The notes: a model not told the origin generated them from the sequence alone. A stretch of 59,420 bases of DNA from an uncultured Rhodospirillales bacterium (GCA_964496805.1 CAZCBM010000001.1:1-59420), one strand, 5' to 3'. Counted from the first letter of the stretch, positions 1,869 through 59,120 are shown. Translations and numbers: made by a program.

Positions 1869-3110
1869 TTAGCGCTCACGGATCCAAATCACCATGCGGC
1901 TGACTTGGGAGGCGCTGGCGTTGGCGTTGCGGTACCAACTGCCAACGAAATTGTTGTTCCTGTGGAACATGCTGTTCTGCCAACAGTTGGTGTACCACCA
2001 ACCGCCGTTGTAGCTGACATTGTTCCGCGCACAATTGCTGGACCACGTGTCATTGTCTCGGTCCCATGTGGTGAACGCCTGCCCGCGAATATCGTTACTG
2101 GTGCAGCTGCTGTAGGAATTCCGCAGGATCCAGCTGCTGCCGCAGCCGCCCCAACTGATCGCATAGGTGCTGCCTGAGATACTGAAATCCGTGTGGCTGA
2201 GATCAGGGTCGCCGTTGCCGCCCTGGTTGTCGATAAAGAAGTCGTTTTGGCTGTAGGTGCTGGTAAAGGCGGACCATGCCCCCAGGGGCATCCAATAAAA
2301 CCCAGTGGAAGGCGACGGGGTGCCATAGCCGTTCTGGGTGTACATGTCCCACCCGCCAGCGGCCACGGTCGTCCCGTCTGTCGCCGTCACGGTTGCGCTG
2401 CCATCGCCGCCCACCGCCAGCTTTTCAGAACTGGACATTCCGGTGGCCGACGTTGCCAGCAGCATCCAGCCACCCCCATCGCGGGATTGGTCACAATAAA
2501 CCTCCAGCGGCCCAAAACCGAAATCCACGGTATAGGTACCGCTGCCGGTCTGGCCACTGTCCAACAGGGCCTTGCAACTGGTGGCGGTGGTGACGCTGAC
2601 GGAAACGGTTGCGGTGTCTGATCGGCCGTCCGCCCCTTGAACGGTATAGCTAAACTGGACCCCACTGGCGGCCGAAGGAGTGACCTGGATGGCCGAACCG
2701 CCCAGGCTGACACTGGTGCCAACGGCGCCGCCAACCCCGGTTATGCGCAACCCCTCGCCGTCATCATTTGATAGAAGGTCCTCTAGCGGAACGCTGAGGA
2801 TGGCCCCCAATTGGATGGGGCCAACCGTGTCATCGCTGGCGCGCGTGGCCTCAAAGTCGGGGGCAGGGGTTGCCCTGGTGCCGTCCAGGGTGCTGGCAAC
2901 ACCGGTGAACAGCTCAGTCGTGCTTTCACCAACTCTATTTACGGCCGTCAGGGCCCCCAAGGCGATCAGACCAACCCCCAAGGCATAGGTCAGCGCCGTG
3001 GCGCCCCGACGCCTGCCGTTGCTTGAATGCATGTCCTGGCCCAAAGCACTCACCCCTGCCTGCGGATACCCATGGGCGGAAGGTGTGACCCCCTCAGCAG
3101 AGGCTGTCAA
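1869..3110 (-). CDS. secreted/pilin-like protein: Flp-type N-terminus, cadherin-like module and fibrinogen-related C-terminal domain
   Basis: N-terminus RRRGATALTYALGVGLIALGALTAV is collinear with the Flp pilin leader plus helix. Middle region has LLSNDDGEGLRITGV...FSYTVQGADGRSDTATVSVSV. C-terminus has LEVYCDQSRDGGGW and FTTWDRDNDTWSSNCA...NGGWWYTNCW. Alternative start at ATG 3032 (MHSSNGRRRG). Confidence 0.75.
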   Translation of the reverse strand: MTASAEGVTPSAHGYPQAGVSALGQDMHSSNGRRRGATALTYALGVGLIALGALTAVNRVGESTTELFTGVASTLDGTRATPAPDFEATRASDDTVGPIQLGAILSVPLEDLLSNDDGEGLRITGVGGAVGTSVSLGGSAIQVTPSAASGVQFSYTVQGADGRSDTATVSVSVTTATSCKALLDSGQTGSGTYTVDFGFGPLEVYCDQSRDGGGWMLLATSATGMSSSEKLAVGGDGSATVTATDGTTVAAGGWDMYTQNGYGTPSPSTGFYWMPLGAWSAFTSTYSQNDFFIDNQGGNGDPDLSHTDFSISGSTYAISWGGCGSSWILRNSYSSCTSNDIRGQAFTTWDRDNDTWSSNCARNNVSYNGGWWYTNCWQNSMFHRNNNFVGSWYRNANASASQVSRMVIWIRER

Positions 3111-27350: not shown

Positions 27351-29777
27351 ATGGCCATCAGCACCCAGGGCGATGATCGGAATGGGCCTGCCACCGGCAC
27401 GCTGCAGGCCATCAACGGCCTGATCGCTCGCCGCCGGCGATTCACCCTCTATGTCGTTTTGGGCCTGCTTTTCGGGGTCTGGATGGGCCTTCGGGTGGCT
27501 GAAAACGCCTCCGCCCGCAGTTTCGCGGATGGTTTCCAGCACATCCCGGATTTCTTCACCGATTTCTTCAGCTATTTCCACCGGGGCGAGTTGGAGCGCC
27601 AGGAGCTCAGCCCCTACGCCAACCTGCTCAGCCTGGAGACCGAGGATCGCGGATCCATCGCGCGCTGGCTGCGCAACTGGCCCCAGTATTTTGACCTTCT
27701 CTGGCAGACCGTGAACGCGGCTTTGTTCGCCAACGTCCTGGGCTTCTGCTTGGCTGTGGTGCTGGCCTTTGTTGCCTCCCATCGCTACGGCCCGACGGGG
27801 ATCTTGGTCCTCTGGGTCACCCGCCTGCTGGCCCTGCTCCGGCGCTTTGGGATGCTGGGGGAGATCCAACACCGCTCCCTCCAGGCCTGGGCCGAGGCGC
27901 GACTGCCCCGCACCCTGTTGCGCGATGGGGCGCGCCGGATGCTGGAACTCTGCCGCTCCGTCCCGGAGCTGATCTCCGCGCTGTTCCTGGTCTATCTGCT
28001 GGGCGGGGGGCCCTTGGCGGCGGTCTTCGCGCTGACCATTCACACGGTCGGCGCCCTGGGCAAGCTGTTCAGTGAGGTGGCTGACAATGCCCCCCCGGGC
28101 CCTGTGGAGGGGTTGACCTCCTCAGGGGCAAGCTGGGTGCAGCGCATGCGCTACGGCATCCTTCCGCAGGTGCTGCCCAACTTCTACAGCTATGGCCTGC
28201 TGCGGCTGGAGATCAACATCCGGGTCTCCACGATCCTGGGATATGTGGGCGCCGGTGGGATCGGTCAGGAACTGCAAGTGCGCATCGCCCAGGGCAATGA
28301 GCCCCAGGCCTTCGCCATCATCGTGCTACTGATCGCCACCATCATCCTGATCGACTGGATCAGTGCCGTGCTGCGCCAACGCTTGATCCGTGATCAAGAA
28401 GGCAGCCCTGCCCGCGCCGGTTGGCTGCGCGTCATCGCTCAGGCTCTACGCTGGGTGGGGGCGCAATTGACGGAGATCGGCTCTGACCTTTGGTATGGCG
28501 TGCGGCAAGGGCTGCCCGCGCTATCCGCCGCCGTGGGCCGCTTTGTTCATCGGGCGGCCCTGGGTCCACCCGATGCCCTGGAACCCGCCCCCTATCGCGC
28601 CGCCCGGCAGCGCCTGTGGATCGGGCTGGGCGTCACATCCCTGGTGATGATTTACGTTTTACAGTCCTTACTGACATTTCAGATTCTTCGTGTCGTACCG
28701 GGATTGTCTTTGGGGGCCCTGGGCACCCTGCCCGCCTTGGACTGGGGGGAACCGTTCCAGCGGGGATCGGAATTCTTCTGGCGCGCCTGGGAGGCGATGG
28801 TGGGGTGGGGGACCTATGACCCCGAGAGCCAAAAGGGCTGGATCAATTTCTGGGTTTGGCCCCACGCCGCCATTTGGGAAGGGGTTCTGCAGACCCTGGT
28901 GATTGCCTTTCTGGGCACCCTGTTTGCCACCCTCACCGCCATCCCGCTGGCATTCATGGCCGCACGCAACGTCCAGGGTCAGTTCTGGTATGGGCTGGGG
29001 GTGGCTGGCCTGCTGCTTCTGGCTGTCCTCGGTTTCCCAGCCATGCTTACTTTGGTGTTGGCAGCCGCCAGTCTAACCGCCATCCGCGCCCACGTCATGG
29101 GACCAGGCGCGGAGAACAAGGTCGTGAGGTGGCTGATGGCCCGCGCCGGGCACAGCCCGCGCTTTGAATCCTTCGCGCGCCGCAGTACCCGCTTTGCCTT
29201 TGGCGTGGTGCGAGGCGTTGACACCCTGATCTGGGCCTTGGTGTTCATTCGCGCCTTCGGTCTGGGACCCATCGCGGGGATCCTGGCCATCTGGCTGGTG
29301 GACAGCGGCACCTTGGGCAAACTGTTCAGTGAAGCCATCGAGAATATTGACCGCAAGCAGCCCGAGGGAGTCCGCGCCACTGGGGCCCGTCAGGCCAGCA
29401 TTTACCGGTTTGGGTACCTGCCCCAGGTGTTCCCGGTGATGTTGAGCCAAGCGCTGTATTTCTTTGAGAGCACTGTGCGCTCTGCCACCATCATCGGTGC
29501 TGTGGGGGCCGGTGGCATCGGGTTGCTGATCACTGAGCGCATACGGGCGGACATCTGGGATCAGACCCTCTATATCGTGTTGATCATTCTGGTGCTCGTC
29601 TATGTGATCGACCAGCTGAGCTATTGGGTGCGGATGCTGGTGATCCGCCAGGAGGAGCGGGTGAAGCCCCCGGCGGCGGTGGTGGCCCTGTTGAGTCCGC
29701 TGTGGCTGATGGCGGGGCTCTGGCGGCAGGTGCGCGCGGCAATGGTGCGCACCCGCACTGATCTGGAGCGGCTGTAG
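27351..29777 (+). CDS. phnE: fused tandem PhnE-PhnE phosphonate ABC permease
   Basis: Contains two complete permease modules. Each carries GxLGKLFSE...P.EG..(S/A)(S/T)GA....(M/I)(R/Y)(Y/F)G(I/Y)LPQV(L/F)P and (Y/A)VGAGGIG. A linker of about 150 aa joins them. Confidence 0.8.
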   Translation: MAISTQGDDRNGPATGTLQAINGLIARRRRFTLYVVLGLLFGVWMGLRVAENASARSFADGFQHIPDFFTDFFSYFHRGELERQELSPYANLLSLETEDRGSIARWLRNWPQYFDLLWQTVNAALFANVLGFCLAVVLAFVASHRYGPTGILVLWVTRLLALLRRFGMLGEIQHRSLQAWAEARLPRTLLRDGARRMLELCRSVPELISALFLVYLLGGGPLAAVFALTIHTVGALGKLFSEVADNAPPGPVEGLTSSGASWVQRMRYGILPQVLPNFYSYGLLRLEINIRVSTILGYVGAGGIGQELQVRIAQGNEPQAFAIIVLLIATIILIDWISAVLRQRLIRDQEGSPARAGWLRVIAQALRWVGAQLTEIGSDLWYGVRQGLPALSAAVGRFVHRAALGPPDALEPAPYRAARQRLWIGLGVTSLVMIYVLQSLLTFQILRVVPGLSLGALGTLPALDWGEPFQRGSEFFWRAWEAMVGWGTYDPESQKGWINFWVWPHAAIWEGVLQTLVIAFLGTLFATLTAIPLAFMAARNVQGQFWYGLGVAGLLLLAVLGFPAMLTLVLAAASLTAIRAHVMGPGAENKVVRWLMARAGHSPRFESFARRSTRFAFGVVRGVDTLIWALVFIRAFGLGPIAGILAIWLVDSGTLGKLFSEAIENIDRKQPEGVRATGARQASIYRFGYLPQVFPVMLSQALYFFESTVRSATIIGAVGAGGIGLLITERIRADIWDQTLYIVLIILVLVYVIDQLSYWVRMLVIRQEERVKPPAAVVALLSPLWLMAGLWRQVRAAMVRTRTDLERL

Positions 29778-29839
29778 CCGCTTTCCGTCAGGGGCGCTAT
29801 CCTGCGGCGTCCCGATCCTGCTGACCTGAGCGCTGCGCC

Positions 29840-31285
29840 GTGGCCCATAAGCACCGCAAGAAGCCTGTCCCTCCGACCGCCGGTGCTGCCACCGCGGACC
29901 AGGAGTCCGCTGAACAGATTGCGGACCAGGAGTCCGCTGACCAAAAAACGGATCGGGGGTCTGCCGCCTCAGCCGCGGGGGATCAAGGTTGGACCGATGC
30001 GACGCCCGCGCTCTATAGCCATGCAGCCCTGCAACAGGCCCAAGACGGGGAGACGGCAGACGCCGACAGTCCGCAGCAGCCTGAAGGGCTGATGGACAAG
30101 TTGGCCCGCATGGCCCGTACCGCCGCCTCCACCATGGGCGAACTCTGGCGCGGGGAGCGAGAGCGCGGCGTCCTGGATCGCAGCTACAATGACAAGGCGA
30201 AACCCTGGTTTGGCTTCGGCAAGCGGCCTGTCTATCGGGTGCTGGCCATCGATGGCGGCGGGATTCGCGGCCTTGTCCCTGCCCGCGTCCTGGAAGAGAT
30301 CGAACGCCGCACCGGCAAGCCCATCGCCAAGCAGTTTGATTTGATCGCCGGCACCTCCACCGGCTCCGTCATCGGCCTGGGCCTCAACGTCCCCAGTCCC
30401 GAGGACCCGACCCAGCCAGCCTACAGTGCCGCTCAGGTGGCGCGCCTGTATGCTGAAGATGGCCAATCCATCTTTCCGCCCTCGCGGTTCAAGGCCTTTC
30501 GGCAGATGATGGGCCCAGCCTATGACGCCGCACCGCTGCGCGAGAAACTCCAGGCGATGCTGGGCGACACGAAGATGAGTGAGTCCCTCACCAACGTCAT
30601 TGTCCCGGCTTATGACATTGAACGGGGCGATGCGCTCAGCCTGCGCCATATCCGCAACCTGAAGGGCGCCTCCGATCCCGACTATGCAATGGCCGATGTG
30701 GCCGCGGCCAGTTCAGCGGCGCCAACGTATTTCCCGCCCCACCGCTTCACCAGCGTCGATGGGCGGGAGAGTCACGCCTGCATCGATGGCGGCGTGATCG
30801 CGCGAAATCCAACGCTGTTCGCCCTGACCCAAGCCATTAAGCTTGCCCCCAAGGACGCCCGGATTGAGATGGTGAGCCTGGGGACCGGGTCCTATCCGCC
30901 GAAAATCCCCTATGAGAAGGCCGAGAAGTGGGGGGCGGTGGAGTGGGCCAATCCCCGTGCCGGCTCGCCCATGATCGGGGTGATGATGGATGGTGCCTCG
31001 GAGATGGCCAATCGCTTGGCCGAGCGACTGTTGGGCGATGGGTTCTTGCGCCTGGACATGGACATCGACCAGATGCCGGAGGGTCCCACCCGGCCCAGCG
31101 GGCACCTGGACGACGCCAGCCCAAAAAATGTGGCGCGGCTGGAGGCCTTTGCAAAGAAGCTGATCACGGACAACAGCGACACCATCGATCGGATTTGTGC
31201 CACCATCGATCCCAGCTACACCCCTCAACCGGCTCCCCCGCACAGCGTTGCTGGACCAGCTGCGGCACCGGGGCCGGCGCGGTGA
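29840..31285 (+). CDS. patatin-like phospholipase with N-terminal basic/acidic extension
   Basis: DGGGIRG oxyanion motif, GTSTG nucleophile elbow and IDGGVIARNP catalytic Asp. GTG start gives MAHKHRKKP. Later starts such as MDKLARMA cannot be excluded. Confidence 0.85.
   Translation: MAHKHRKKPVPPTAGAATADQESAEQIADQESADQKTDRGSAASAAGDQGWTDATPALYSHAALQQAQDGETADADSPQQPEGLMDKLARMARTAASTMGELWRGERERGVLDRSYNDKAKPWFGFGKRPVYRVLAIDGGGIRGLVPARVLEEIERRTGKPIAKQFDLIAGTSTGSVIGLGLNVPSPEDPTQPAYSAAQVARLYAEDGQSIFPPSRFKAFRQMMGPAYDAAPLREKLQAMLGDTKMSESLTNVIVPAYDIERGDALSLRHIRNLKGASDPDYAMADVAAASSAAPTYFPPHRFTSVDGRESHACIDGGVIARNPTLFALTQAIKLAPKDARIEMVSLGTGSYPPKIPYEKAEKWGAVEWANPRAGSPMIGVMMDGASEMANRLAERLLGDGFLRLDMDIDQMPEGPTRPSGHLDDASPKNVARLEAFAKKLITDNSDTIDRICATIDPSYTPQPAPPHSVAGPAAAPGPAR
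29894..29940 (+). repeat. 20-nt unit repeated at 27-nt period inside the patatin N-terminal extension
   Basis: GCGGACCAGGAGTCCGCTGA occurs at 29894-29913 and 29921-29940. It encodes ADQESAEQI/ADQESADQK. Confidence 0.8.
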
Positions 31286-31575: not shown

Positions 31576-32871
<1,296 letters not shown>

Positions 32872-33010
32872 CGGGTTCCTGTCAGGCAAGGGGAAAGGGC
32901 TGAGGCGTCGCGATGGGACGGGATCAGCGGCAGGCATTGCTGCGGTCGGTAGAGCAGACCGCGCCCAAAGGCAAGCAGGCTGGCCCGTTTGCGGCGTGCG
33001 CCAAGGGGTC

Positions 33011-34042: not shown

Positions 34043-34981
34043 TCACCGCCCAAAGGTCTTGAACCCCACCAAGGCGGCCTCGCCCTCCGTCTCATCCTGG
34101 CCCAGGCTGACCACGCCCACATCCGGCAGGTCCATCATCTCCCGGATCAGACTGATCCGACGGCCCGGCAGGATGACATAGGTGCCATTGCGCGAGTGAT
34201 CCTTGATGGACAACCGCCCACGCTCAAGGCTCATGGTGGCATGTTCACGGGAGGTGTTGTGGCAGCGGACGGTCACATCGCAATGCTCGCTGCGACCCAG
34301 GAGGATGCGGGGATTGTCCACGGAAAGCTCTGCCATCTCGCCCTGGTAATCCAGGATCACCCGCAGCCGGGCAAATTGGGCCTGAGGTTGAGCAGCGGCC
34401 ACCTCAGAGGGGTCCATAAAGATCGTGGGGCTCTCCGTCTCATCGGCCTCCACGGCCTCTTCCTGCTCGCGCAGAGTGGGATCGGAGAGGAAGAAAAGAT
34501 CCACGGGCTCCTGCCGTCCCCGCAGCGTGACCCTTTTGAGCGGCTCAAACCGGATGCCGCCCGGGGGTTGAATGCCAAACGCGTCCACCACTGCGCCGCT
34601 GGCCAGGGTCTCCGACGCCCGGGCCAAGCCAGAAATGCGGGCCGCGCAATTGACCACGTCCCCAAAAATATCGCCGGTGTCGTCCAACAGGACGTTCCCA
34701 TGGTCCAGGCCGATCTTAATGCGAATGCGATTATCGTGGCCGGTCATAATGGCCCGTACCGCTGCTACGGCATCATGGGGTGTAGAGAAACGGCACAGCA
34801 CCCCATCGCCCAGGGTCTTCACCACGACGCCACCCGTACGGGCGATCTGCTGGACCATCGCCTCCACCCCGCCAGTCACGAGGCGGGCGGCTGTCTCGTC
34901 GCCCAACACCTCATACAGGCGTGTGCTGTCCTGGATGTCCGCAAACATCACGGTGTTTATGAGCGATGCAGCCTCGGCCAT
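34043..34981 (-). CDS. class III adenylate/guanylate cyclase fused to C-terminal FHA domain
   Basis: CHD pattern (VMFADIQDSTRLYE, KTLGDGVLCRF, GDIFGDVVNCAARI). The C-terminus ILLGRSEHCDVTV...SREHATMSLERGRLSIKDHSRNGTYV is FHA-like. Start taken at ATG 34981; 35032 or 35059 are also possible. Confidence 0.8.
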   Translation of the reverse strand: MAEAASLINTVMFADIQDSTRLYEVLGDETAARLVTGGVEAMVQQIARTGGVVVKTLGDGVLCRFSTPHDAVAAVRAIMTGHDNRIRIKIGLDHGNVLLDDTGDIFGDVVNCAARISGLARASETLASGAVVDAFGIQPPGGIRFEPLKRVTLRGRQEPVDLFFLSDPTLREQEEAVEADETESPTIFMDPSEVAAAQPQAQFARLRVILDYQGEMAELSVDNPRILLGRSEHCDVTVRCHNTSREHATMSLERGRLSIKDHSRNGTYVILPGRRISLIREMMDLPDVGVVSLGQDETEGEAALVGFKTFGR

Positions 34982-35315
34982 GGCAGCCTCGTGGCAGGGA
35001 TAGGGGTTTCGGATTACCCGCAAAGGGGCCATCTCTCGGGTGTTATCGACATTTATCAATGTCCCCTGAGATGGAAAGGCGGTTTAGCATGGCCACGGCT
35101 ATGCGCCAACGGTCAAGCAACGGCCGTCCCGAACCGTTCTGGCGGCAAACAGCGGGCAAGGGGAAAGACGTCTGCCCTAAAGGCCAAGGGCGAACCTCAA
35201 GCGCCTCCGGAGGGGTGATTTTGCTTGGGCCTTTCGGCATTTGCGGCCAGTTTCAGGGGTGTCAGCCGCCCTGATCCCAATTCCCTGGATCCCATGCCCT
35301 GGAGAGGACCCCACG

Positions 35316-36356
35316 ATGGCGAAGCATCGCAAGAAGCCGCAAAAGAGCCATCAGAAGGCAACGCCCCAGGCCTCTGGTCCCAGTGGCATGGAGCAAAAGT
35401 TTGGCGCCTGGGGTATCGATATGAAGGAGGTGACCTTCACCAAGTCACCCACCAAGACGGCCCGTTCCGCCTTCAAGGAGGTACGCCGCGGCTTCCTCCA
35501 GCACTTGGCCGAGAACTACAGCGATGAATTGCGCAAGGCCGGCCTGAGCGAGGCGCAGATCGACACCATGCGCGATCAGGGTCGCAGCCCCCCCAACATG
35601 AATGTCCACCACAAGCTGCCCTTGAGCGGCGGTGGCAAGAATGTCTGGGATAACTTGGTCCTCATCCCGATTGAGCCGCATCACAGCGCCATCCATCGGC
35701 ACAGCGATCCGCAGATCGTGGACCTGGGCAAGGGTCAGAGCCGCACCATTGTGATGGCATGGCCGGCCGGGCCGATCTATGCGCCCAAGCATCCAGATAT
35801 GTGGAAGGGCCGCGATATGGACGCGATCATGGCGGCTGCCCAAAAGGGCCAGCGGCTGGACGCCCCGGCACAGCAGCAGCCCTCCGTATCCGCCCCAACC
35901 CGTGCACCGCGGGTGATTGAATCCTCCGCGCCGGTGGCACAGGCCCCATCGGCCGCAGCCCCGGCAAAGCCCGCGGCTGATCCTGCCGCAGCGCCCGCTG
36001 CCCCGTCCAATGACGGCTACGGGTGGGCTTTGGGGGAAGAGGACGCCCGCCCTTCGCGGTCCCTGGCGCCTCCCTCCCACCAGGCATCGGCGCAGCCGGC
36101 GGCCTCGGATGACGACGCTGCCCACGGTTGGACCCTGGATGGGGCCGAAACCGGCAGCAACCCGGCGCCTGCTCGCCCTTCCGCCCCCAAGTCCCCGCCC
36201 AAAGGCGACGATGCTGAGGGCTTTGGCTGGACGCTGGGTGTCAGTGAGGATGCCCCGGCCAGCAGCAAGGGGCATCGCAAACCCCAGAAGCCAGCAAAGA
36301 AGACCTGGGTCGAGTCCTTCGATCCCAATCAGATTTCCACGCCGCGAAGGCGCTGA
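35316..36356 (+). CDS. HNH-motif nuclease domain protein with long Ala/Pro-rich tail carrying repeated acidic-GW motifs
   Basis: ATG 35316 with GGAGAGGA upstream. HNH core NVHHKLPLSGGGKNVWDNLVLIPIEPHHSAIHRH (aa 97-129). The tail contains DGYGWALGEED, AAHGWTLDGAE and AEGFGWTLGVSED. The C-terminus is basic. Confidence 0.7.
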   Translation: MAKHRKKPQKSHQKATPQASGPSGMEQKFGAWGIDMKEVTFTKSPTKTARSAFKEVRRGFLQHLAENYSDELRKAGLSEAQIDTMRDQGRSPPNMNVHHKLPLSGGGKNVWDNLVLIPIEPHHSAIHRHSDPQIVDLGKGQSRTIVMAWPAGPIYAPKHPDMWKGRDMDAIMAAAQKGQRLDAPAQQQPSVSAPTRAPRVIESSAPVAQAPSAAAPAKPAADPAAAPAAPSNDGYGWALGEEDARPSRSLAPPSHQASAQPAASDDDAAHGWTLDGAETGSNPAPARPSAPKSPPKGDDAEGFGWTLGVSEDAPASSKGHRKPQKPAKKTWVESFDPNQISTPRRR

Positions 36357-36627
36357 ACGGGCTTGGCGGACAGGGGCCGTTCGGGCTAGAGGCTCCGGGG
36401 GAAAGAGCGTTTCTGCCCCCGGCGCCAACGCCGCTGTCCTCAGGGTTTAGACAGCACCTCGAGGTCGGGCTGCATAGTGAGCCGTGGCCCCACCGCTCCT
36501 GTGGACGCTGCTTCCGTGGCGCCGTTCTGTGGCGCTGTTCCGTGTCGACGCTTTTTCTGGACGCCTTCTCTGGATTCGGTGGTGCCGTCAACGCCGTGAT
36601 ATGTGTCATCAGCAAGGACTGATCCCA

Positions 36628-37062
36628 ATGTATGAGCCGATCCTTGAACGCCTGGCCGCAGAGGCCATCCTGTTCCCACCCGCCACGGTGGAAGAGGTCA
36701 GCAGCCTCCAGGACGGGTTGAAGGCGGCACAGCTGTCCGGCATCCCCCAGTCGTACGGCCAGTTTCTGCTGGAGAGCAACGGCTTCGCCTGGAACGGCGT
36801 CCAGTTCTATGGCACGCGGGAGATGGTTGAGCCGGCCGATCCGTTGACCCTGCCTTCGTTAATCCAGGCCCATCAGCGCATCGCTGACATCCGCCCTGAT
36901 CTGGCGCCTTGGCAGGTGATCGGTGCAGCCGACGACGACCTGTATGTCTTTGACACGGAGAAGAAGACAGCCGCCGTGCTGGACCGCTCCACCTTTGAAG
37001 TCATCGAAGAATATCGCAGCTTTGGCGACCTGTTCGAGGCGGTGATCGAGGAATATAGCTGA
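36628..37062 (+). CDS. SMI1/KNR4 (SUKH)-family immunity-like protein
   Basis: ATG 36628. GIPQSYGQFLLESNGFAWNGVQFYG...VIGAADDDLYVFD...EEYRSFGDLFEAVIEEY matches the SUKH/YrhA-like pattern. Confidence 0.65.
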   Translation: MYEPILERLAAEAILFPPATVEEVSSLQDGLKAAQLSGIPQSYGQFLLESNGFAWNGVQFYGTREMVEPADPLTLPSLIQAHQRIADIRPDLAPWQVIGAADDDLYVFDTEKKTAAVLDRSTFEVIEEYRSFGDLFEAVIEEYS

Positions 37063-42633: not shown

Positions 42634-43483
42634 TGTGCATCTGGCTGTGATCCATCAAGGCAGGGGCATGGCCGCAGCCTGCAATTTCAGCGATCGTTGC
42701 CGGCTCACCCGTTTTGGCTCCGACCATCTCCCGGGCGACTTCCGCGGGCAGCAGGTCACTGTCCTCGCCCCGCAGAATCAGGGTCGGTGCCTGGATCGCT
42801 TGCCAGAGGGGCCCAAGGTCCAGATCGGTGTTGCCGTTGGGCTGGATCGCCGCCCCTATGGCCGGATCATAGTGCAGACCCCAGCCCTGCCCCTGCGGGC
42901 GGACTGACGTCTCAGCCAGGTGTCGCCATTGGGCGTCACTCAGGGCACCAAACGGGGCATGAACCCGCCGCAGGTGGGCCTCCACCTCTGCCATGCTGTC
43001 GAACCGCTGGGGCGCGGCCTGCATGTAGGCCCCGATCCGATCCAGGGCTGCCGCCGGGATCACCGACCCCACATCGTTGATCACCAACCGCCGCACGGGG
43101 CTGAGCGGGTCAGCGGCCAGGACAAAAGCGATCAGCCCGCCCATGGAGGTTCCCACCCAGTCCACTTCGGTCAGCCCAAACGCGTTGAGCATATTCACGA
43201 TGTCGGCGGCATACTGGCCAGGATGGTAGTGCTGGGGATCGCGCAGCCAATCGCTGCCCCCGCGCCCCACCATATCCGGGCACAGCACCCGCCGCCCCTG
43301 CCCGGCCAGATGGGCCGCCAGAGCATCAAAGTCCCGTCCCGTGCGGGTCAGCCCATGCACGCACACCACCGGTGGCAATTCAGGCCCTGCGGTGCACACG
43401 GGCTCGTGAACATGGACGTTCAGGCGATGCAGGCCAGCCGGGCTGGAACAGAGGACGGAACGGGTATAGGTTTCGTTGGACAT
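42608..43483 (-). CDS. alpha/beta hydrolase
   Basis: VVCVHGLTRTGRDFD, GTSMGG, GCGHAP. Start at ATG 43483 or 43510. Confidence 0.75.
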   Translation of the reverse strand: MSNETYTRSVLCSSPAGLHRLNVHVHEPVCTAGPELPPVVCVHGLTRTGRDFDALAAHLAGQGRRVLCPDMVGRGGSDWLRDPQHYHPGQYAADIVNMLNAFGLTEVDWVGTSMGGLIAFVLAADPLSPVRRLVINDVGSVIPAAALDRIGAYMQAAPQRFDSMAEVEAHLRRVHAPFGALSDAQWRHLAETSVRPQGQGWGLHYDPAIGAAIQPNGNTDLDLGPLWQAIQAPTLILRGEDSDLLPAEVAREMVGAKTGEPATIAEIAGCGHAPALMDHSQMHIVSSWIGS

Positions 43484-43576
43484 TGCTTTCCCATTTTCAG
43501 CACCCATCATCGGCTTGCCACCCCTGACGGGTCGCGCCTAGACTGTCTACCGTCCTCTTTGATCACCGGAGCCCTC

Positions 43577-44341
43577 ATGTCCGCGATTACCGGCAAAGTC
43601 ACGCAGCTGGTGAATTTTTACCGCTCCAGCGCCTTGCCGTGCCCCTACATCCTTGGCCAACTGGAACGCAAGTTGTTCACCCGGCTGCCGGGGCAGGATG
43701 TGGATAACCTGAATGGCAGCCTGACCGTTGGCGGTTTCCGCCGGTCTCACGAGTTTGTCTACCGGCCCATTTGCGATCATTGCTCCGCCTGCAAGCCCGT
43801 TCGCATTCGTGCGGAGGCCTTTGCGCCGTCCCGCAACGTCAGGCGTCTGTTCAAGAAGAATGCCGACCTAGTGATGCGCGAAGCGCCCTGTGTGCCCACG
43901 AGCGAGCAGTATCGGCTGTTCGCCCGATATCAGGCCCGGCGTCATGGGGACGGGGACATGGCCAGCATGGGCCCGGAAGACTATGCGGCCATGATCCGCG
44001 AAGGCAGCGAGCATTCGTCCCTGATGGAGTGGCGGTTGGGGGAGGCGCTGGTGGCAGTGATCCTGATCGACCATGTGGAGGGGGGCATCTCCGCTGTGTA
44101 CAGCTTTTTCGATCCGGCGATGCCCGAACGCTCCCTCGGCCGGCATATGGTGAACGCCTTGGCGCACTGGGCGCGGGAGGAGGGGCTGAGACACGTCTAC
44201 CTTGGCTACTGGATCGCACAGTCCCGCAAAATGGCCTACAAGGCTGAGTTCCAGCCCTTGGAGGTGCTGGAAGGCGGCCATTGGATCCCCTTTGAGGGGA
44301 GCATGGCGCAGCGTGAGAGCCAGGGCGTCGAAACGCGTTGA
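43577..44341 (+). CDS. bpt: arginyl/aspartyl-glutamyl-tRNA--protein transferase (bacterial ATE homologue)
   Basis: ATG 43577 inside ORF 42920..44341. LPCPYILGQLERK, GFRRSHEFVYRPICDHCSACKPVRI, YLGYWI. Confidence 0.85.
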   Translation: MSAITGKVTQLVNFYRSSALPCPYILGQLERKLFTRLPGQDVDNLNGSLTVGGFRRSHEFVYRPICDHCSACKPVRIRAEAFAPSRNVRRLFKKNADLVMREAPCVPTSEQYRLFARYQARRHGDGDMASMGPEDYAAMIREGSEHSSLMEWRLGEALVAVILIDHVEGGISAVYSFFDPAMPERSLGRHMVNALAHWAREEGLRHVYLGYWIAQSRKMAYKAEFQPLEVLEGGHWIPFEGSMAQRESQGVETR

Positions 44342-53501: not shown

Positions 53502-53981
53502 TCAGTAGCCGATGTGGGCCGTGAACTCCCGCAGCACCAAGCCCCAGAAATCCACCGTGTCCTTGAAATTGGCGGTGCAGACGCCGCCGTCCAAATTGAC
53601 GTTCATCTCGATCACCGCATCGCCCTGGGTGTCGAGATAGGCTTTGCCGAAGCGCTTCTCATAGTTCCAACTGTTGATCTGATCCAGCGTCACAGGCGTG
53701 TCCACGGTGAAACCGGCAGTGAACTGGACATCCGTGCAGTCCTGCCCGTTGGTGCAACCATAGAAGTAAACGGCATAACTGATCCCCTCCATACGCCCGG
53801 TGATCAAAGGATCTCCTTCTTGGTCCTTGGTTACCTCAGCCGCCCCGGCCGCCTGGAGCAGGGTAACCATGGCCTGGGGATCAGAGGCGCTGATGGTTTC
53901 GCATTGGGCGTGGGCGATGCCGGAACCGGCCAGCAGACCGAGGGCCAGCACGGGAAGCAGGGTACGCAGGCGACGGGTCAT
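53502..53981 (-). CDS. secreted YbjN-like domain protein
   Basis: Start at ATG 53981 inside ORF 53502..54623. Signal peptide MTRRLRTLLPVLALGLLAGSGIAHA. The family call is tentative. Confidence 0.45.
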   Translation of the reverse strand: MTRRLRTLLPVLALGLLAGSGIAHAQCETISASDPQAMVTLLQAAGAAEVTKDQEGDPLITGRMEGISYAVYFYGCTNGQDCTDVQFTAGFTVDTPVTLDQINSWNYEKRFGKAYLDTQGDAVIEMNVNLDGGVCTANFKDTVDFWGLVLREFTAHIGY

Positions 53982-54203
53982 GGCAGAGGGCTCCGATCCG
54001 GTGGATAGCTTGAGGAAGGCGCAGACATGGGCTTCTATGCTGGACCACCATGGCCCGATCATGGCAACCCCTGTGGCGCCATGGCGCGCCTTGGCCACTT
54101 GTGTGCGTCTCCACACCTTGATTTGCGGGGTCAACCGACGACAAGGGGTCATCCGCTGCTTCTCGTGCGTCACCTTACCTCCAGAACAACAGGTCTCCCA
54201 GCC

Positions 54204-55058
54204 GTGTCCAATCCGATCTTCGTGTTCAAGCTGAGCTGTCAGGATCGCCCTGGCATCGTCGCTGCCGTATCCAGCTGCATTGCCGAGCATGGTGGCAATA
54301 TTCTGGAAAGCGCACAGTTTGACGATCTGGACACAGGCGACTTCTTCATGCGCGTGCGGTTCAGTTGTCAGACCGATCAAGGGCGGGATCGGTGGGAGCA
54401 CGCCTTCAAGCCTGTGATTGACCGCTTCGGCATGCGCCACGAATTGATTGACGAAAGCCACCGTCAAAGGGTGGTGATCATGGTCTCCAAGATCGATCAT
54501 TGCCTCAATGACCTGCTGTATCGTTGGCGGCGTGGTCGCCTTGCCATGGATATTGTTGCCGTCGTCTCCAACCACGATGTCCTGCGGTCGGAGGTGGAGG
54601 CCTTGGGCATCCCTTACCATCATTGGCCGGTGACACCGGAAACGAAGGCGGAGCAGGAGGCAAAACTCCTAGCGCTGATTGATGCCGAACAGGTGGACCT
54701 GGTGGTGCTCGCGCGCTACATGCAGGTTTTGAGCAACAGCCTGTCCCGGAAGTTGTATGGCCGGGTGATCAACATCCATCACTCGTTTCTGCCTGGGTTC
54801 AAGGGGGCCAAGCCCTATCATCAGGCCCATGCACGGGGCGTGAAACTAATTGGCGCCACGGCCCATTTCGTGACAGAGGACCTGGACGAGGGTCCAATCA
54901 TCGCCCAGGACGTGGCCGTTGTGGATCACAGTTTCAGTGTGCGCCGAATGGTGGATGCCGGCGGCGACGTTGAGGCACGGGTGCTGGCACGGGCCGTGCG
55001 CTATCACCTGCAAAACCGCATTCTGCTGAACGGCAACAAAACGGTGGTCTTCACCTGA
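54204..55058 (+). CDS. purU: formyltetrahydrofolate deformylase
   Basis: GTG 54204. N-terminal ACT domain (FVFKLSCQDRPGIVAAVSSCIAEHGGNI). Formyltransferase core (INIHHSFLPGFKGAKPYHQA, GATAHFVTEDLDEGPII). Confidence 0.85.
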   Translation: MSNPIFVFKLSCQDRPGIVAAVSSCIAEHGGNILESAQFDDLDTGDFFMRVRFSCQTDQGRDRWEHAFKPVIDRFGMRHELIDESHRQRVVIMVSKIDHCLNDLLYRWRRGRLAMDIVAVVSNHDVLRSEVEALGIPYHHWPVTPETKAEQEAKLLALIDAEQVDLVVLARYMQVLSNSLSRKLYGRVINIHHSFLPGFKGAKPYHQAHARGVKLIGATAHFVTEDLDEGPIIAQDVAVVDHSFSVRRMVDAGGDVEARVLARAVRYHLQNRILLNGNKTVVFT

Positions 55059-56729: not shown

Positions 56730-59120
56730 TCACGGCGCTGTGTCGCGGGGATACAGATGGACGGCTCCCGCCTCCTCATCCTCGCGGTTGTCGCCGGGGG
56801 CTGCCACCAGCAGGGCGCTGGGGATCACAGCAACCCGGCGGCCAAAACTGGGCTCCGTGCCCTGCCCTGTCGGTGCCTGTGGGTTACGAAAGATGCTGCT
56901 CAGTTGCCAAGGCATGTCCGCCCCAGCACGCTGATAGAGGTACGCCCCGGGTCGCGCTTCGGCCTCCCCCGGCTGACCGGGCGCCCCCACCAGCAGCGTG
57001 GTCTCATCCATACCAAGGCTAACCCCGAAGGCCACGGGACCGTCCAGGGGTTGGGCTTGCAGGCTTTGCTGCACGGTCCAGTCCGCCAAGGGGGCTCCCC
57101 TCTGTGCGGGTGCCAGACTATGGACCTGCCGTGCTCCCGGTGCCGCCACCAGCAGGTGTTCCCCATCCAGGGCCAGGGTCGCCCCGAACCCATCACCGGG
57201 GCGGGACTGTGGGGCCGACAAGGTGACGGCCGGGGCAAGGGTGACGGCCCAGGGATTCGACCGCTGGTAGATATCCACCCGACCAGGCGTGTTGTCGTCG
57301 CCTGGAGAGCCCACGAACAAAGCGGTCTCCGTCAGCAGCAACGAGGCTGCAAAGCGGGCAACCCCCACAGGAGGCGCCTCCACCTGGCTTGGAAAGGTGC
57401 CAGTGAGGGGCGTCAACAGCACCGGCCCCCCCTCTGCGGCGCTGGCCAGCAGCGCCTGATCGGCCACGGCTGCCACCGGCCCGTTGCCATGGCGGACCTC
57501 AACCAGATCGACCACCGTTGAGGGAACGGCCGGGTCCAGCAACCGCACTTGCAGCGTCCTGGTCGCCGAGCCCTCGGCGGATGTGTCCTCAGCGGATGTG
57601 TCCTCAGCCGGAGTGCCCTCAGTGGGAGTTCCGTCACTGGGGGTTTCTGTCCGGGCCGGCCCGCCCTTGGGAGAGATCAGCAGCAGCTTGTCCCCTTCGA
57701 CAACCGTGCCGAGCCTCACCCTATCTCCGCTCACGTCCAAGGCAGGCCAACTATCACCCACCAGGATCCCCAGGCGAGAAATCCCATCCGCATTGCCCAG
57801 TCGCACGGCGTCCACCCGGGCCAAGCCGGCCAACGCAGGGTCCATGGGGACACTCAACACATAGGCTTCGTCCCCCACAACACCCAGGTCCCACCCCAGC
57901 CGAGCGCCGGCTGTGGTGCCAATCAGCGTCTGAGGCTCCAGGTCGGCGGAGGGTGCGGCCGGAGGCGGCGTTGCGGTGGTGGTGGGCTCACCAGCAGCAC
58001 TGTCGGTCTGGGCCATCAGGCTGGAGGCCGTCTGCTGCCCCAGATGCCCCTGGGCGTAGCGCGCCACCGCCCATCCCAGGCCCAGCAACACAAGGATCAA
58101 AACCAGGCCTGTGGCCACCGGCGCCTTGCGGCCCCCTTTGACCTCAAGATCCGGCGCCATGCCCGGGCTAGCGGGCGTCGCAGGGGCATCGTCATCGATG
58201 CTGGTGATCTCGGCGGTTAACCACGTCCGAGCGCCTGCTGGCGGGGGCGGCGCCGGCTCGGCCGCCACATTGGCCAGCGACGGATCCAAAAGGGCCAGCA
58301 ACTGGGATCCGCTGCCGGCACGGTGTGCCGGATCAGGGGTTAGCCCAGCGATGAGCATGGGCCGCAGCCAGTCCGGCACGAAGGAGAGGTCAGGGGCCGC
58401 CTGCCGCGCGGTCACCGCATCGGTGAAGCCGGAGCCTTCAAACAGCGGGCGGCCGGTGGCGGCGAACAGGATCACCACGCACAGGCTGTACAGATCAGTC
58501 TTGGGGCCAATGGTGCGCGCCCCGCCGAACAAACCCATCTGCTCCGGCGCGGCATAGCGCAGTTTGCCCGCAAACCGATCCCCAATGACCGTGGCGGCGT
58601 CATCGTCCGCCAAGTCCTTTGAGATGCCAAAATCAATCAAGGTGGCCTTGGCCACTTCATCGTCGCGCAGAATGATGTTGTCCGGCGCAAGATCCCGATG
58701 CACCACGCCAAGGGCGTGCAGGGCATCCATGGCCGGCAGCAGCCGGCGGCACAGCGCCACAATGTCCGCCTGCGACAGGGGCGAGGTCTCCAAAGGGCTG
58801 GGCTTCACCCGCTGCTGCAGGGACGGCCCCTCCACATAGTCCATGACCAGGATCAACTGCCCATCCGGGCTTTGCTGGATGCCATAGCACCGGACCACCG
58901 CTTCCACATTCAGTTGGATCAGGCGCCGCGCCTCCCGCCGGAACAACTCCGCGGCGGTCTCGTTCAGGCTGCCCTCGTGCAGGGCCTTCAGGGCGTAGAC
59001 AGTGCTGTCGATGGACGGGTCGAAGCTCTCCGCCTTATAGACGGTGGCGAAACCTCCCTGGGCGACCTCGCCCAGAACCCGATAGGTGTTGTTGAGGATA
59101 TCCCCGGGATGCAGCGGCAC
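56730..59120 (-). CDS. receptor-type Hanks Ser/Thr protein kinase with extracytoplasmic FG-GAP-like repeats
   Basis: Kinase motifs GGFATVYKA, YALK, HRDLAPDN, DFGISK and YAAPEQ. One TM helix (LVLILVLLGLGWAV). The C-terminal region has repeated LLV(G/A)APG...G.V.LY motifs. GTG start with GAGGG upstream. Confidence 0.85.
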   Translation of the reverse strand: MPLHPGDILNNTYRVLGEVAQGGFATVYKAESFDPSIDSTVYALKALHEGSLNETAAELFRREARRLIQLNVEAVVRCYGIQQSPDGQLILVMDYVEGPSLQQRVKPSPLETSPLSQADIVALCRRLLPAMDALHALGVVHRDLAPDNIILRDDEVAKATLIDFGISKDLADDDAATVIGDRFAGKLRYAAPEQMGLFGGARTIGPKTDLYSLCVVILFAATGRPLFEGSGFTDAVTARQAAPDLSFVPDWLRPMLIAGLTPDPAHRAGSGSQLLALLDPSLANVAAEPAPPPPAGARTWLTAEITSIDDDAPATPASPGMAPDLEVKGGRKAPVATGLVLILVLLGLGWAVARYAQGHLGQQTASSLMAQTDSAAGEPTTTATPPPAAPSADLEPQTLIGTTAGARLGWDLGVVGDEAYVLSVPMDPALAGLARVDAVRLGNADGISRLGILVGDSWPALDVSGDRVRLGTVVEGDKLLLISPKGGPARTETPSDGTPTEGTPAEDTSAEDTSAEGSATRTLQVRLLDPAVPSTVVDLVEVRHGNGPVAAVADQALLASAAEGGPVLLTPLTGTFPSQVEAPPVGVARFAASLLLTETALFVGSPGDDNTPGRVDIYQRSNPWAVTLAPAVTLSAPQSRPGDGFGATLALDGEHLLVAAPGARQVHSLAPAQRGAPLADWTVQQSLQAQPLDGPVAFGVSLGMDETTLLVGAPGQPGEAEARPGAYLYQRAGADMPWQLSSIFRNPQAPTGQGTEPSFGRRVAVIPSALLVAAPGDNREDEEAGAVHLYPRDTAP
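57578..57652. repeat. 15-nt tandem repeat (2 perfect and 3 degenerate units) inside the kinase ectodomain linker
   Basis: CGGATGTGTCCTCAG x2 followed by diverged units. On the minus strand it encodes the pentapeptide repeats TPTEG/TPAED/TSAED/TSAEG. Confidence 0.8.

Follow-up and report, generated by a model that had tools for sequence, protein, structure and literature searches.

A shared basic leader and acidic Gly-Trp motifs on a patatin-like phospholipase and an HNH nuclease of a Rhodospirillales bacterium: a candidate address tag

Why should two enzymes that have nothing in common in their catalysis begin with the same short peptide? The question is raised by a stretch of 59,420 nucleotides from an uncultured Rhodospirillales bacterium (GCA_964496805.1 CAZCBM010000001.1:1-59420), which is called the window throughout and whose first letter is position 1. 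The gene of a 481-aa patatin-like phospholipase (29840..31285, +) and that of a 346-aa stand-alone HNH toxin-type nuclease (35316..36356, +) both open with a basic leader containing KHRKKP, and both proteins carry short acidic Gly-Trp (GW) motifs. We propose, tentatively and with not quite an even chance of being right, that both enzymes are directed by these linear motifs to a single partner, probably a route of export or delivery. The components themselves are of known kinds, namely a patatin/CapV-like lipase and an HNH polymorphic-toxin domain with YrhA immunity. New are the stand-alone toxin with a minimal basic leader and a GW-repeat tail, and the presence of the leader and the motif type on a second, unrelated lethal enzyme.

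Two leaders, their GW motifs and the selection on them

The patatin leader, (M)AHKHRKKP, is encoded at 29840..29866 (+) by GTG GCC CAT AAG CAC CGC AAG AAG CCT. The basic leader of the HNH protein, MAKHRKKPQKSHQK (35316..35357, +), begins with the shared core MAKHRKKP, which occupies 35316-35339 and is encoded by ATG GCG AAG CAT CGC AAG AAG CCG. These codon readings agree with an earlier note on this DNA, which had pointed to the peptide match at the two N-termini and to an accompanying DNA match over 17 nt. The latter is also present: the 17-mer AAGCAYCGCAAGAAGCC is found at 29849 and 35322 and nowhere else in the window, against 0.02 occurrences expected. The 17 nt are the full extent of DNA similarity between the two sites (repeat family D20), and a recent DNA duplication or a mobile element as the source of the leader was rejected on this ground. 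Because of the codon bias of a genome with 64% G+C, the DNA match adds little beyond the peptide match.

To evaluate the coincidence of the two peptides, the N-termini of all 46 proteins predicted in the window were shuffled 20,000 times with their composition preserved. Any pair with a common 6-mer in residues 2-12 arose in 0.4% of the shuffles. No further protein among the 46 has a similar leader, as the earlier note had also stated. The sole other polybasic run in the window, ARRRKPEG, lies within a probable 5' over-extension of a glycosyltransferase open reading frame (ORF).

The match depends on the start codons. Both ORFs show a coding-type G+C content at the third codon position from the proposed starts onwards, and the NCBI gene calls on the contig use identical starts (481 and 346 aa, and 144 aa for the immunity gene described below). 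The GTG at 29840 is the first start past an in-frame stop at 29822 and the only start 5' of the patatin GW island. The patatin orthologue of L002 (P0001, 91% identical protein) begins GTG GCC CAA AAG CAC CGC AAA AAG CCT, which reads MAQKHRKKP. The gene call, the orthologue start and the constraint on the GW island together make it unlikely that this GTG is unused, a doubt that had been raised when the match was first described.

The GW motifs have the general form [acidic]-x(0-3)-[GA]-W-[TAS]-[LD] and lie within Ala/Pro/Ser/Gln-rich disorder. In the patatin, a single island, GDQGWTDATPALYSHAALQQAQDG (aa 47-70; 29978..30049, +), holds the core GDQGWTD (aa 47-53; 29978-29998). The HNH tail contains three copies: NDGYGWALG (aa 232-240; 36009..36035, +), which fits DGxGW and is NDGFGWSLG in the orthologue; AAHGWTLDG (aa 267-275; 36114..36140, +), which is AGHGWSLDG in the orthologue; and EGFGWTLG (aa 301-308; 36216..36239, +), which is identical there. 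All four are thus present as the earlier note described them. A third lineage (P0002) has ETAWQLDPD at the position equivalent to the patatin island. GW[TA] alone is not rare, as it also occurs in folded parts of adenosylhomocysteinase (AdoHcyase), methionine aminopeptidase and Tgt from the window. Three copies in the 169-aa disordered HNH tail compare with about 0.04 expected from composition by our own estimate.

For both genes, synonymous and non-synonymous changes were counted codon by codon against the orthologue from a related organism. The 13 codons of the HNH leader differ from those of orthologue P0122 by one synonymous and no non-synonymous change, the peptide being identical over 13 aa, while the 11 codons of the linker that follows contain three synonymous and four non-synonymous changes. 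In the patatin leader (aa 1-10) there is one synonymous change (AAG>AAA) and one non-synonymous change, His3 to Gln, which leaves KHRKKP untouched. The patatin GW island shows seven synonymous changes and one non-synonymous change against L002; the first flanking disordered segment has five and seven, plus an 18-aa indel, and the second has one and five. The HNH tail as a whole has changed quickly (30 synonymous, 54 non-synonymous), with conserved islands inside it: the three GW cores and the C-terminal block SSKGHRK.QKP.KK.WV.SFDP.QISTP are kept in the orthologue. In the third lineage (P0002/L003, 64% identity), which possibly uses a TTG start, the leader DNA is quite different and the peptide, RKRPKPRNK, is still basic. 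Since the leaders and GW islands stay constant through synonymous changes while their disordered flanks change fast, and since L003 keeps a basic peptide on quite different DNA, selection acts on the leader and GW peptides. Conserved islands in fast-evolving disorder are the signature of functional short linear motifs, and this is what we take these peptides to be.

The same comparison bears on an explanation in which the peptide is incidental and the A-rich codons AAG CAY CGC AAG AAG CC serve to keep the start region of the messenger RNA unstructured at 64% G+C. The two genes rank 6th and 12th of 40 for weak 5' structure (-10.8 and -13.7 kcal/mol), their codons 2-9 belong to the richest in A (0.33 and 0.38), and by eye there is no Shine-Dalgarno-like sequence 5' of the GTG at 29840. 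However, neither gene is extreme, their 5' structures being merely weaker than the median. The leaders have taken synonymous changes with their amino acids fixed, the third lineage retains the basic peptide on its different DNA, and the basic leaders of the HNH family persist in genomes of 33-50% G+C, where an A-rich start needs no selection. The GW motifs would also be left unexplained. An effect on the messenger alone is therefore extremely unlikely. An RNA element was rejected as well: across the 59 kb window (1-59420) there is no tRNA gene, no Rfam family reaches its gathering threshold, and the 5' folding energies do not stand out.

A toxin with its immunity gene and an orphan lipase

The HNH gene was classified from its relatives, its conserved HNH residues and the predicted structure of its core. 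The Pfam model HNH PF01844 gave only a weak match (E 2e-3; score 18.6, below the cut-off of 21.4) and a word-indexed search returned a single close homologue. An exhaustive HMMER search found 487 HNH relatives at E<=1e-3, which match aa ~30-165. This segment (35403..35810, +) is assigned as an HNH (beta-beta-alpha-metal) toxin domain by homologue search, alignment and AlphaFold2 (AF2), and H98, H99, N109, N113, H123 and H127 are invariant across 36 relatives. AF2 run on two HNH sequences gave a predicted local distance difference test (pLDDT) score of 39.6, and the core was resolved only with a 75-sequence alignment, with 10-residue block means of 89-97 for aa 31-160 and a pLDDT above 90 over most of aa 30-160. 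The leader scored about 60, and the block means for aa 180-346 were 39-57. A Foldseek search of the model against the PDB gave nothing significant, with weak HNH matches.

The C-terminal tail (aa 178-346; 35847..36353, +) is Ala/Pro/Ser-rich and is called disordered from its low pLDDT and its fast non-synonymous change; in a tblastn search against plasmids it found no match. Close to its end stands a second leader-like basic motif, KGHRKPQKPAKK (36267..36302, +); after it come the conserved WVxSFDPxQISTP and a terminal Arg. Over the last 31 aa the net charge is about +7, and it is kept in the orthologue.

The HNH domain is homologous to the C-terminal toxin domains of trafficking-domain proteins, with E down to 1e-32. 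In the long relatives, the part upstream of the HNH domain contains PAAR plus prePAAR (P0220, P0223), LXG (P0228), WXG100 plus PT-TG (P0212), PT-HINT (P0260) or a Mu-portal fragment. Searches with tblastn led to genes of Bacillus and SPbeta phages annotated as 'T7SS effector LXG polymorphic toxin' (T7SS, type VII secretion system; 38.8% identity, E 1e-16) and to a Photobacterium HNH gene beside Rhs, Hcp and VgrG genes of a type VI secretion system (T6SS). A phage origin of the window gene was considered and rejected: seven viral contigs carry stand-alone relatives, some ending in ...GRGGR, but there are no phage genes at the window locus.

Downstream of the toxin gene lies a 144-aa immunity gene of the YrhA family (SUKH-type; 36628..37062, +), which matches NF038335 with 71.7 bits (cut-off 55, E 5.6e-20) and has weak Pfam matches to SMI1_KNR4, SUKH_6 and SUKH-4. 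The gene is conserved in L001; a listed 192-aa ORF at 36484-37062 over-extends the real 144-aa gene. YrhA genes also stand directly 3' of homologous HNH toxins in Polaromonas, Photobacterium and SPbeta phages (L131, L132, L133). Because of this family homology and gene order, we regard the HNH gene and its YrhA-family neighbour as a toxin-immunity pair, in which a predicted DNase would be kept harmless in its producer by the YrhA/SUKH protein. On the other side of the HNH gene, a class III adenylate/guanylate cyclase-FHA fusion (34043-35059, -) is placed divergently, an arrangement that is conserved in L001. This protein shows weak similarity to the Pycsar cyclase (PycC) model (E 3.5e-10) and ends in ...KTFGR.

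A DNase with an immunity protein and GW motifs in disorder recalls the colicins. The TolB box of colicins is DGTGW in ColA (residues 11-15) and DGSGW in ColE9 (35-39), located in a natively disordered N-terminal translocation domain (PMC2821528). Repeat 1 of the HNH tail fits the DGxGW core, and EGFGW, AHGW and GDQGW fit in part; we regard this resemblance as a lead. Both enzymes could thus be released bacteriocins that import themselves, their disordered regions threading a porin in the outer membrane of the target and the cationic leader suiting a cation-selective pore. All four motifs (NDGYGW, EGFGW, AHGW and GDQGW) lie in disorder, are followed by small and then acidic residues and are conserved, and the HNH domain weakly matches colicin/pyocin DNases (Col-Pyo_DNase in 2 of 36 relatives, and pyocin AP41). 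The patatin has 84 disordered N-terminal residues with a Trp motif mid-way, a layout that resembles the disordered translocation domain of ColE9, which reportedly spans ~83 residues. However, the full DGxGW fit is found in only one motif out of four, and W46, the second Trp that ColE9 requires, has no counterpart here (PMC2821528). No receptor-binding domain, lysis gene or SOS-type promoter was found at these genes; the HNH disordered region is C-terminal, the opposite of colicins; and the genes are chromosomal, amid housekeeping genes, with a position that is conserved in the related organism. Self-import of the colicin kind is accordingly very unlikely.

The second carrier is a patatin with a 134-aa N-terminal extension. 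Its catalytic domain (Pfam limits aa 135-328; 30242..30823, +) was identified by PF01734 (E 5.6e-27), by NCBIfam NF041079, the model for phospholipases activated by cGAMP in the cyclic-oligonucleotide-based antiphage signalling system (CBASS; 208 bits, cut-off 200), and by the PADLOC model for CBASS phospholipase effectors (E 1.7e-72, aa 131-451). Alignment A2 shows GTSTG (S173), DGGGIRG at 138-144 (DGGGxRG) and D316 to be invariant. These CBASS-effector matches, together with the HNH toxin homology and the YrhA gene, bear out the view of the earlier note that the two proteins are enzymatically unrelated members of toxin classes. No gene for a CD-NTase (cGAS/DncV-like nucleotidyltransferase) or other CBASS component occurs in the window near the patatin or beside its closest homologues, and the patatin is classed as CapV-like in fold, not as part of a CBASS system. 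Its neighbours are a phosphonate ATP-binding cassette (ABC) permease and AdoHcyase. The permease gene (27351-29777, +) ends 62 bp 5' of the patatin start; its 808-aa product contains two binding-protein-dependent permease domains and would be a fused double phosphonate ABC permease. A CBASS or Pycsar operon was rejected for the window, as there is no CD-NTase and the cyclase-FHA protein is only a weak match to the PycC model.

Among 120 patatin homologues, the median distance from the N-terminus to DGGG is 9 aa, and only this lineage has more than 100 aa there. For this reason the N-terminal module of the patatin, which consists of the leader, a disordered linker, the GW island and a helix module, is a lineage-specific addition. 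The Ala/Gln/Asp-rich linker (aa 10-84; 29867..30091, +) is called disordered from its composition, its lack of hydrophobic stretches and its fast non-synonymous change. A 27-nt tandem duplication in it (ADQESAEQI / ADQESADQK; 29894-29947, +; tandem repeat family D3) is not present in orthologue P0001, which indicates that the linker expanded recently. The N-terminal module, used in a tblastn search against plasmids, found one insignificant match (E 0.1).

A CapV-type domain with no cyclase partner, as is also the case in the closest homologues, must have some other control. The leader, the GW motifs or both could be part of it, as a degron or as a docking site for a protease, chaperone or inhibitor that restrains both enzymes until a trigger such as phage infection or stress, in the style of abortive infection. 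Basic motifs anchored at the N-terminus are known among the signals that ClpXP and Lon recognize, either enzyme would kill the cell if it were active in the cytoplasm, and the divergent class III cyclase-FHA gene beside the HNH gene, with its weak PycC similarity, would suit such a scheme. However, the HNH toxin already has a dedicated immunity protein, its domain family otherwise serves delivered toxins, and there is no linked gene for a protease, adaptor or sensor. We consider a tag of this regulatory type to be quite unlikely.

A further alternative places the targets in a eukaryotic host. KHRKKP and the C-terminal HRKPQKPAKK would act as nuclear localization signals (NLS), and the GW motifs as Argonaute hooks or another eukaryotic linear motif. 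The basic clusters are NLS-like, GW repeats in disordered regions are the format of Argonaute binding, and patatin-like phospholipases, which need no immunity protein, are classic effectors against eukaryotes. However, the Leu that follows GW[TA] here is not typical of Argonaute hooks, a phospholipase would have little use for an NLS, and the HNH/YrhA pairing is typical of interbacterial toxins. There is also no sign of a host-associated lifestyle, the window being an ordinary metabolic segment of a chromosome. Host-directed signals thus have hardly any probability, and the ideas of an NLS and of packaging into vesicles or particles, which had been put forward with the original observation, are speculation.

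Basic leaders in the HNH family

The HNH family has two architectures. Long proteins carry the HNH domain at the C-terminus, and short stand-alone proteins of 160-300 aa have a C-terminal extension after the domain. A net charge of at least +4 in the first 25 aa was found in 23 of 55 stand-alone proteins and in 2 of 62 proteins of other architectures; for H-x-[KR]-[RKP] within the first 30 aa the counts were 16/55 and 0/62, and for an Arg among the last three residues 41/55 and 16/62. The pattern H-x-[KR]-[RKP] in the first 30 aa recurs in 76 of 97 further family members, which are alphaproteobacterial where named. Both termini of these further members are strikingly conserved. By eye, their N-terminal pattern is M-x(2-5)-[YF]-x-[LFV]-[VI]-H-x-K-R-x-R-K-K-G-K-G, and their C-terminus is an amphipathic stretch ending in ...[KR]QRG or ...GR. 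A profile search with the stand-alone set gave 105 proteins, none with a precomputed Pfam domain; the few that are named are called 'HNH endonuclease' or 'hypothetical protein' and come from metagenome-assembled genomes of Alphaproteobacteria. A basic N-terminal leader is a trait of a stand-alone, mostly alphaproteobacterial HNH clade. This distribution fits a leader that replaces a trafficking module, since the stand-alone relatives are typically basic-leadered and the relatives with PAAR, LXG or other trafficking domains are not.

In a MAFFT alignment, MAK-HRKK of the window protein falls under the H-x-K-R column of the family. Relatives of the gut type (33-50% G+C; L054, L057, L060, L129, L136) carry their HNH genes as one to three tandem paralogues in a conserved chromosomal neighbourhood, next to two DHHA1-like proteins, a ~103-aa lipoprotein and a ThiD-like kinase. 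Near the gut HNH paralogues we found putative metallopeptidases (HExxH) of the DUF6782 family (L136 7367-8437, -; L129 9381-10643, -), with tails ...AAKGKTLGR or ...LYGSGR that are of the same kind as those of the HNH paralogues (...GR-COOH). These tails hint that terminal tags may be shared among unrelated degradative enzymes in gut alphaproteobacteria; nothing on DUF6782 was found in the literature searched. A metagenome scan with the gut-type leader pattern H.KR..KKGKG returned only the N-termini of HNH family proteins, plus a protein with a transmembrane anchor that starts MGRHSKRGKKKGKG.

The prevalence of basic ends in this family suggests a simpler role for them. The termini could be generic electrostatic anchors with no common partner, which bind the nuclease to DNA and the phospholipase to anionic membranes. 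The common hexapeptide would then have come about by convergence or an old local copy, and the GW residues would have no connection with it, serving at interfaces or dipping into membranes. In the stand-alone clade, including the phage-borne GRGGR, it is general for both ends to have basic Arg/Gly-rich tails, which would suit non-specific nucleic-acid binding; the gut members are core-like and without immunity genes; and the leader has merely 6-8 residues. The nearest patatin subfamily has Arg-rich C-terminal tails instead of a basic leader, so that charge seems to matter more than position. Nevertheless, a match like the identical KHRKKP of two of the 46 proteins arises in 0.4% of shuffles, and a second shared motif type, the acidic GW, comes in addition. 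The order His-Arg-Lys-Lys-Pro is invariant in both orthologue pairs though pure charge needs no order, the family motif near the N-terminus includes the conserved uncharged Y/F-x-L-V-H, which suggests specific recognition, and the GW motifs stand amid acidic residues, which is wrong for membrane insertion. Mere charge anchors are thus somewhat unlikely.

The patatin subfamily just mentioned is the closest one outside the lineage (P0003, P0006, P0007, P0008, P0027). Its long Arg-rich tails often end in PPRL, PRL or PPR; P0027 has PGWTG within the tail, and P0003 has RGWLG close to its N-terminus.

An address tag and its closest known counterparts

In polymorphic toxin systems, the delivery route is set by the segment that precedes the toxin domain on its N-terminal side. 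We propose that short recognition motifs in disordered segments, namely the leader MA-x-KHRKKP and the acidic GW motifs, direct two lethal effectors to a common partner in this lineage. The short basic leader would take the N-terminal position that is held in HNH relatives by a PAAR/prePAAR, LXG or WXG100 trafficking domain (in plasmid loci, Rhs and T6SS genes stand next to the toxin instead), and the patatin of the lineage would have gained an N-terminal module with the same leader and a similar Trp motif. The leader, probably together with the GW motifs and the basic C-terminal tail of the HNH protein, would then be a lineage-specific delivery or export tag. Because a leader-like copy, KGHRKPQKPAKK, and a charge of about +7 are found at the C-terminus, the HNH signal may even be bipartite, N-terminal leader plus C-terminal copy.

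A Sec/Tat signal is absent from both proteins: over the first 80 aa, the Kyte-Doolittle value (15-aa window) peaks at 0.11 in the patatin and at 0.01 in the HNH protein, compared with 1.6-1.9 in exported proteins of the window. By analogy, candidates for the machine are the coupling protein of a VirB/D4-type type IV secretion system (T4SS) or a T6SS for which the motifs would be a cargo tag; export itself is likewise inferred. Substrates of the Agrobacterium VirB/D4 system have Arg-rich charged tails, and CagA also requires its N-terminal 20 aa (PMC10025392). RIX, an arginine-rich, lineage-restricted N-terminal element, is both required and sufficient for T6SS secretion (PMC10435454), and payloads of extracellular contractile injection systems carry N-terminal signals of ~50 aa without conserved residues (PMC9054023).

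Several observations weigh against a common address. The exact leader was searched for with the DNA pattern ATGGCN{1,4}AARCAYCGNAARAARCC (ATG-GCN-optional codon-KHRKKP) in one genome per species, 185,579 species in all. There were 50 matches, of which only two are at starts of long ORFs, which is the chance level. A widespread exact tag was rejected, since nearly all of the matches lie away from ORF starts, and by the same count the leader is not common at random N-termini, nor is it demonstrably a portable tag outside this lineage. The known carriers of the exact leader in the window are only two. The metagenome scan revealed the gut-type leader on no other toxin type, and it behaves as a part of the HNH family and not as a portable tag; the alignment of the 8-residue leader to the family leader is compositional and not demonstrable homology. 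Gut-type HNH loci have no YrhA gene nearby and a core-like context, unlike typical accessory toxins. In the window, the HNH toxin domain is N-terminal and followed by a tail, the reverse of the usual polymorphic-toxin order, and the toxin and immunity genes are spaced loosely for members of an operon (271 bp, and 177 bp in L001). An immunity gene and a basic C-terminal tail are both missing from the patatin. Finally, no secretion or delivery genes are present in the 59 kb window or next to the relatives that we examined.

The earlier note had suggested a common targeting, secretion or recruitment signal. Of this suggestion, the conserved motifs, the effector class of both carriers and the association of a basic leader with the stand-alone form have stood; no secretion genes accompany it in the window and elsewhere the leader is at chance level. 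A stronger version, in which the leader and the GW motifs form a new self-contained delivery code for alphaproteobacterial stand-alone toxins, colicin-like or a new class of N-terminal signal for a T4SS or another exporter, is unlikely. If its colicin-like form were true, the cationic N-terminus would thread a porin, DGxGW would hijack TolB, and the patatin would be the first phospholipase bacteriocin of that kind. A new exporter signal would also explain the basic termini of the stand-alone HNH clade and of the DUF6782 metallopeptidases.

Effectors without recognizable trafficking domains are the main blind spot in the cataloguing of bacterial weapons, and each new delivery tag (MIX, FIX, RIX, prePAAR, LXG) has opened a set of otherwise unrecognized toxins. 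The leader connects to a sizeable stand-alone HNH clade, alphaproteobacterial where named, that is common in gut metagenomes and has conserved basic N- and C-termini. If the address tag is real, effectors in poorly studied Alphaproteobacteria could be searched for with it, and protein delivery would gain a small portable tag. If the leader is only a charge anchor, what is left is the record of a stand-alone HNH/YrhA toxin-immunity pair and of an orphan CapV-like lipase.

The remainder of the window holds a few other unusual genes. A 413-aa protein (1869-3110, -) has a weakly Flp/Fap-pilin-like N-terminus, a bacterial Ig domain and also a fibrinogen C-terminal globular domain (E 2.3e-13), which to our knowledge is uncommon in bacteria; in codon-position G+C its gene departs from the rest of the window. 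FG-GAP repeats are found in a 796-aa Ser/Thr protein kinase (56730-59120, -), whose kinase domain matches the PADLOC defence-kinase models mad6 and PD-T4-6 (E ~1e-45). An arginine/leucyl-tRNA protein transferase (ATE_N/ATE_C; 42920-44341, +) has an unassigned N-terminal extension of ~240 aa, and a YbjN-domain protein (53502-54623, -) an unassigned N-terminal region of ~250 aa; both may be ORF over-extensions. Rfam gave no S-adenosylhomocysteine riboswitch upstream of the AdoHcyase gene (31576-32937, -).

Five known systems come closest to the two carriers. CapV of CBASS is matched by the window patatin above the equivalog cut-off of NCBIfam and by PADLOC over almost the full length, but the window protein has no CD-NTase nearby and has a unique 134-aa N-terminal extension. 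Group A colicins likewise include HNH-type DNase toxins with an immunity protein and a conserved DGxGW-like motif in disordered sequence. The window genes differ from them in having no receptor-binding domain or lysis gene, in the C-terminal position of the HNH disorder and in their partial motif matches, and a phospholipase as cargo would be unprecedented.

The HNH/EndoVII polymorphic toxins (SPbeta LXG, Rhs/PAAR T6SS) have the same toxin domain, with E 1e-11 to 1e-15 to PAAR, LXG and PT-HINT proteins, and the same YrhA immunity family immediately 3' of the toxin gene. In contrast to these, the window HNH protein has no PAAR, LXG, Rhs or WXG trafficking domain; its toxin domain lies near the N-terminus between a basic leader of 24 aa and a disordered GW-repeat tail of 170 aa, and its immunity gene is 271 bp away instead of overlapping. 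Substrates of the VirB/D4 T4SS resemble the window HNH protein (about +7) and the stand-alone clade, which ends in ...RxRQRG or ...GR, in their net positive, Arg-rich tails; their signals are C-terminal, whereas the shared element of the window is N-terminal (PMC10025392). The window patatin also differs in that its C-terminus is not basic, and no T4SS genes were seen in the window.

The last comparison is with RIX, MIX and FIX. RIX is a helical domain of ~55 aa that is found only in Vibrionaceae and Moritellaceae and is tied to the T6SS (PMC10435454), whereas the window element consists of 8 aa plus a separate GW motif, has no sequence similarity to RIX and is known from two carriers. The N-terminal regions gave no Pfam or NCBIfam match to a tag of the RIX/MIX type and the window has no T6SS genes; the resemblance is conceptual. 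It lies in a short, Arg/Lys-rich, lineage-restricted N-terminal element that is carried by toxins with unrelated catalytic domains (for RIX, PMC10435454).

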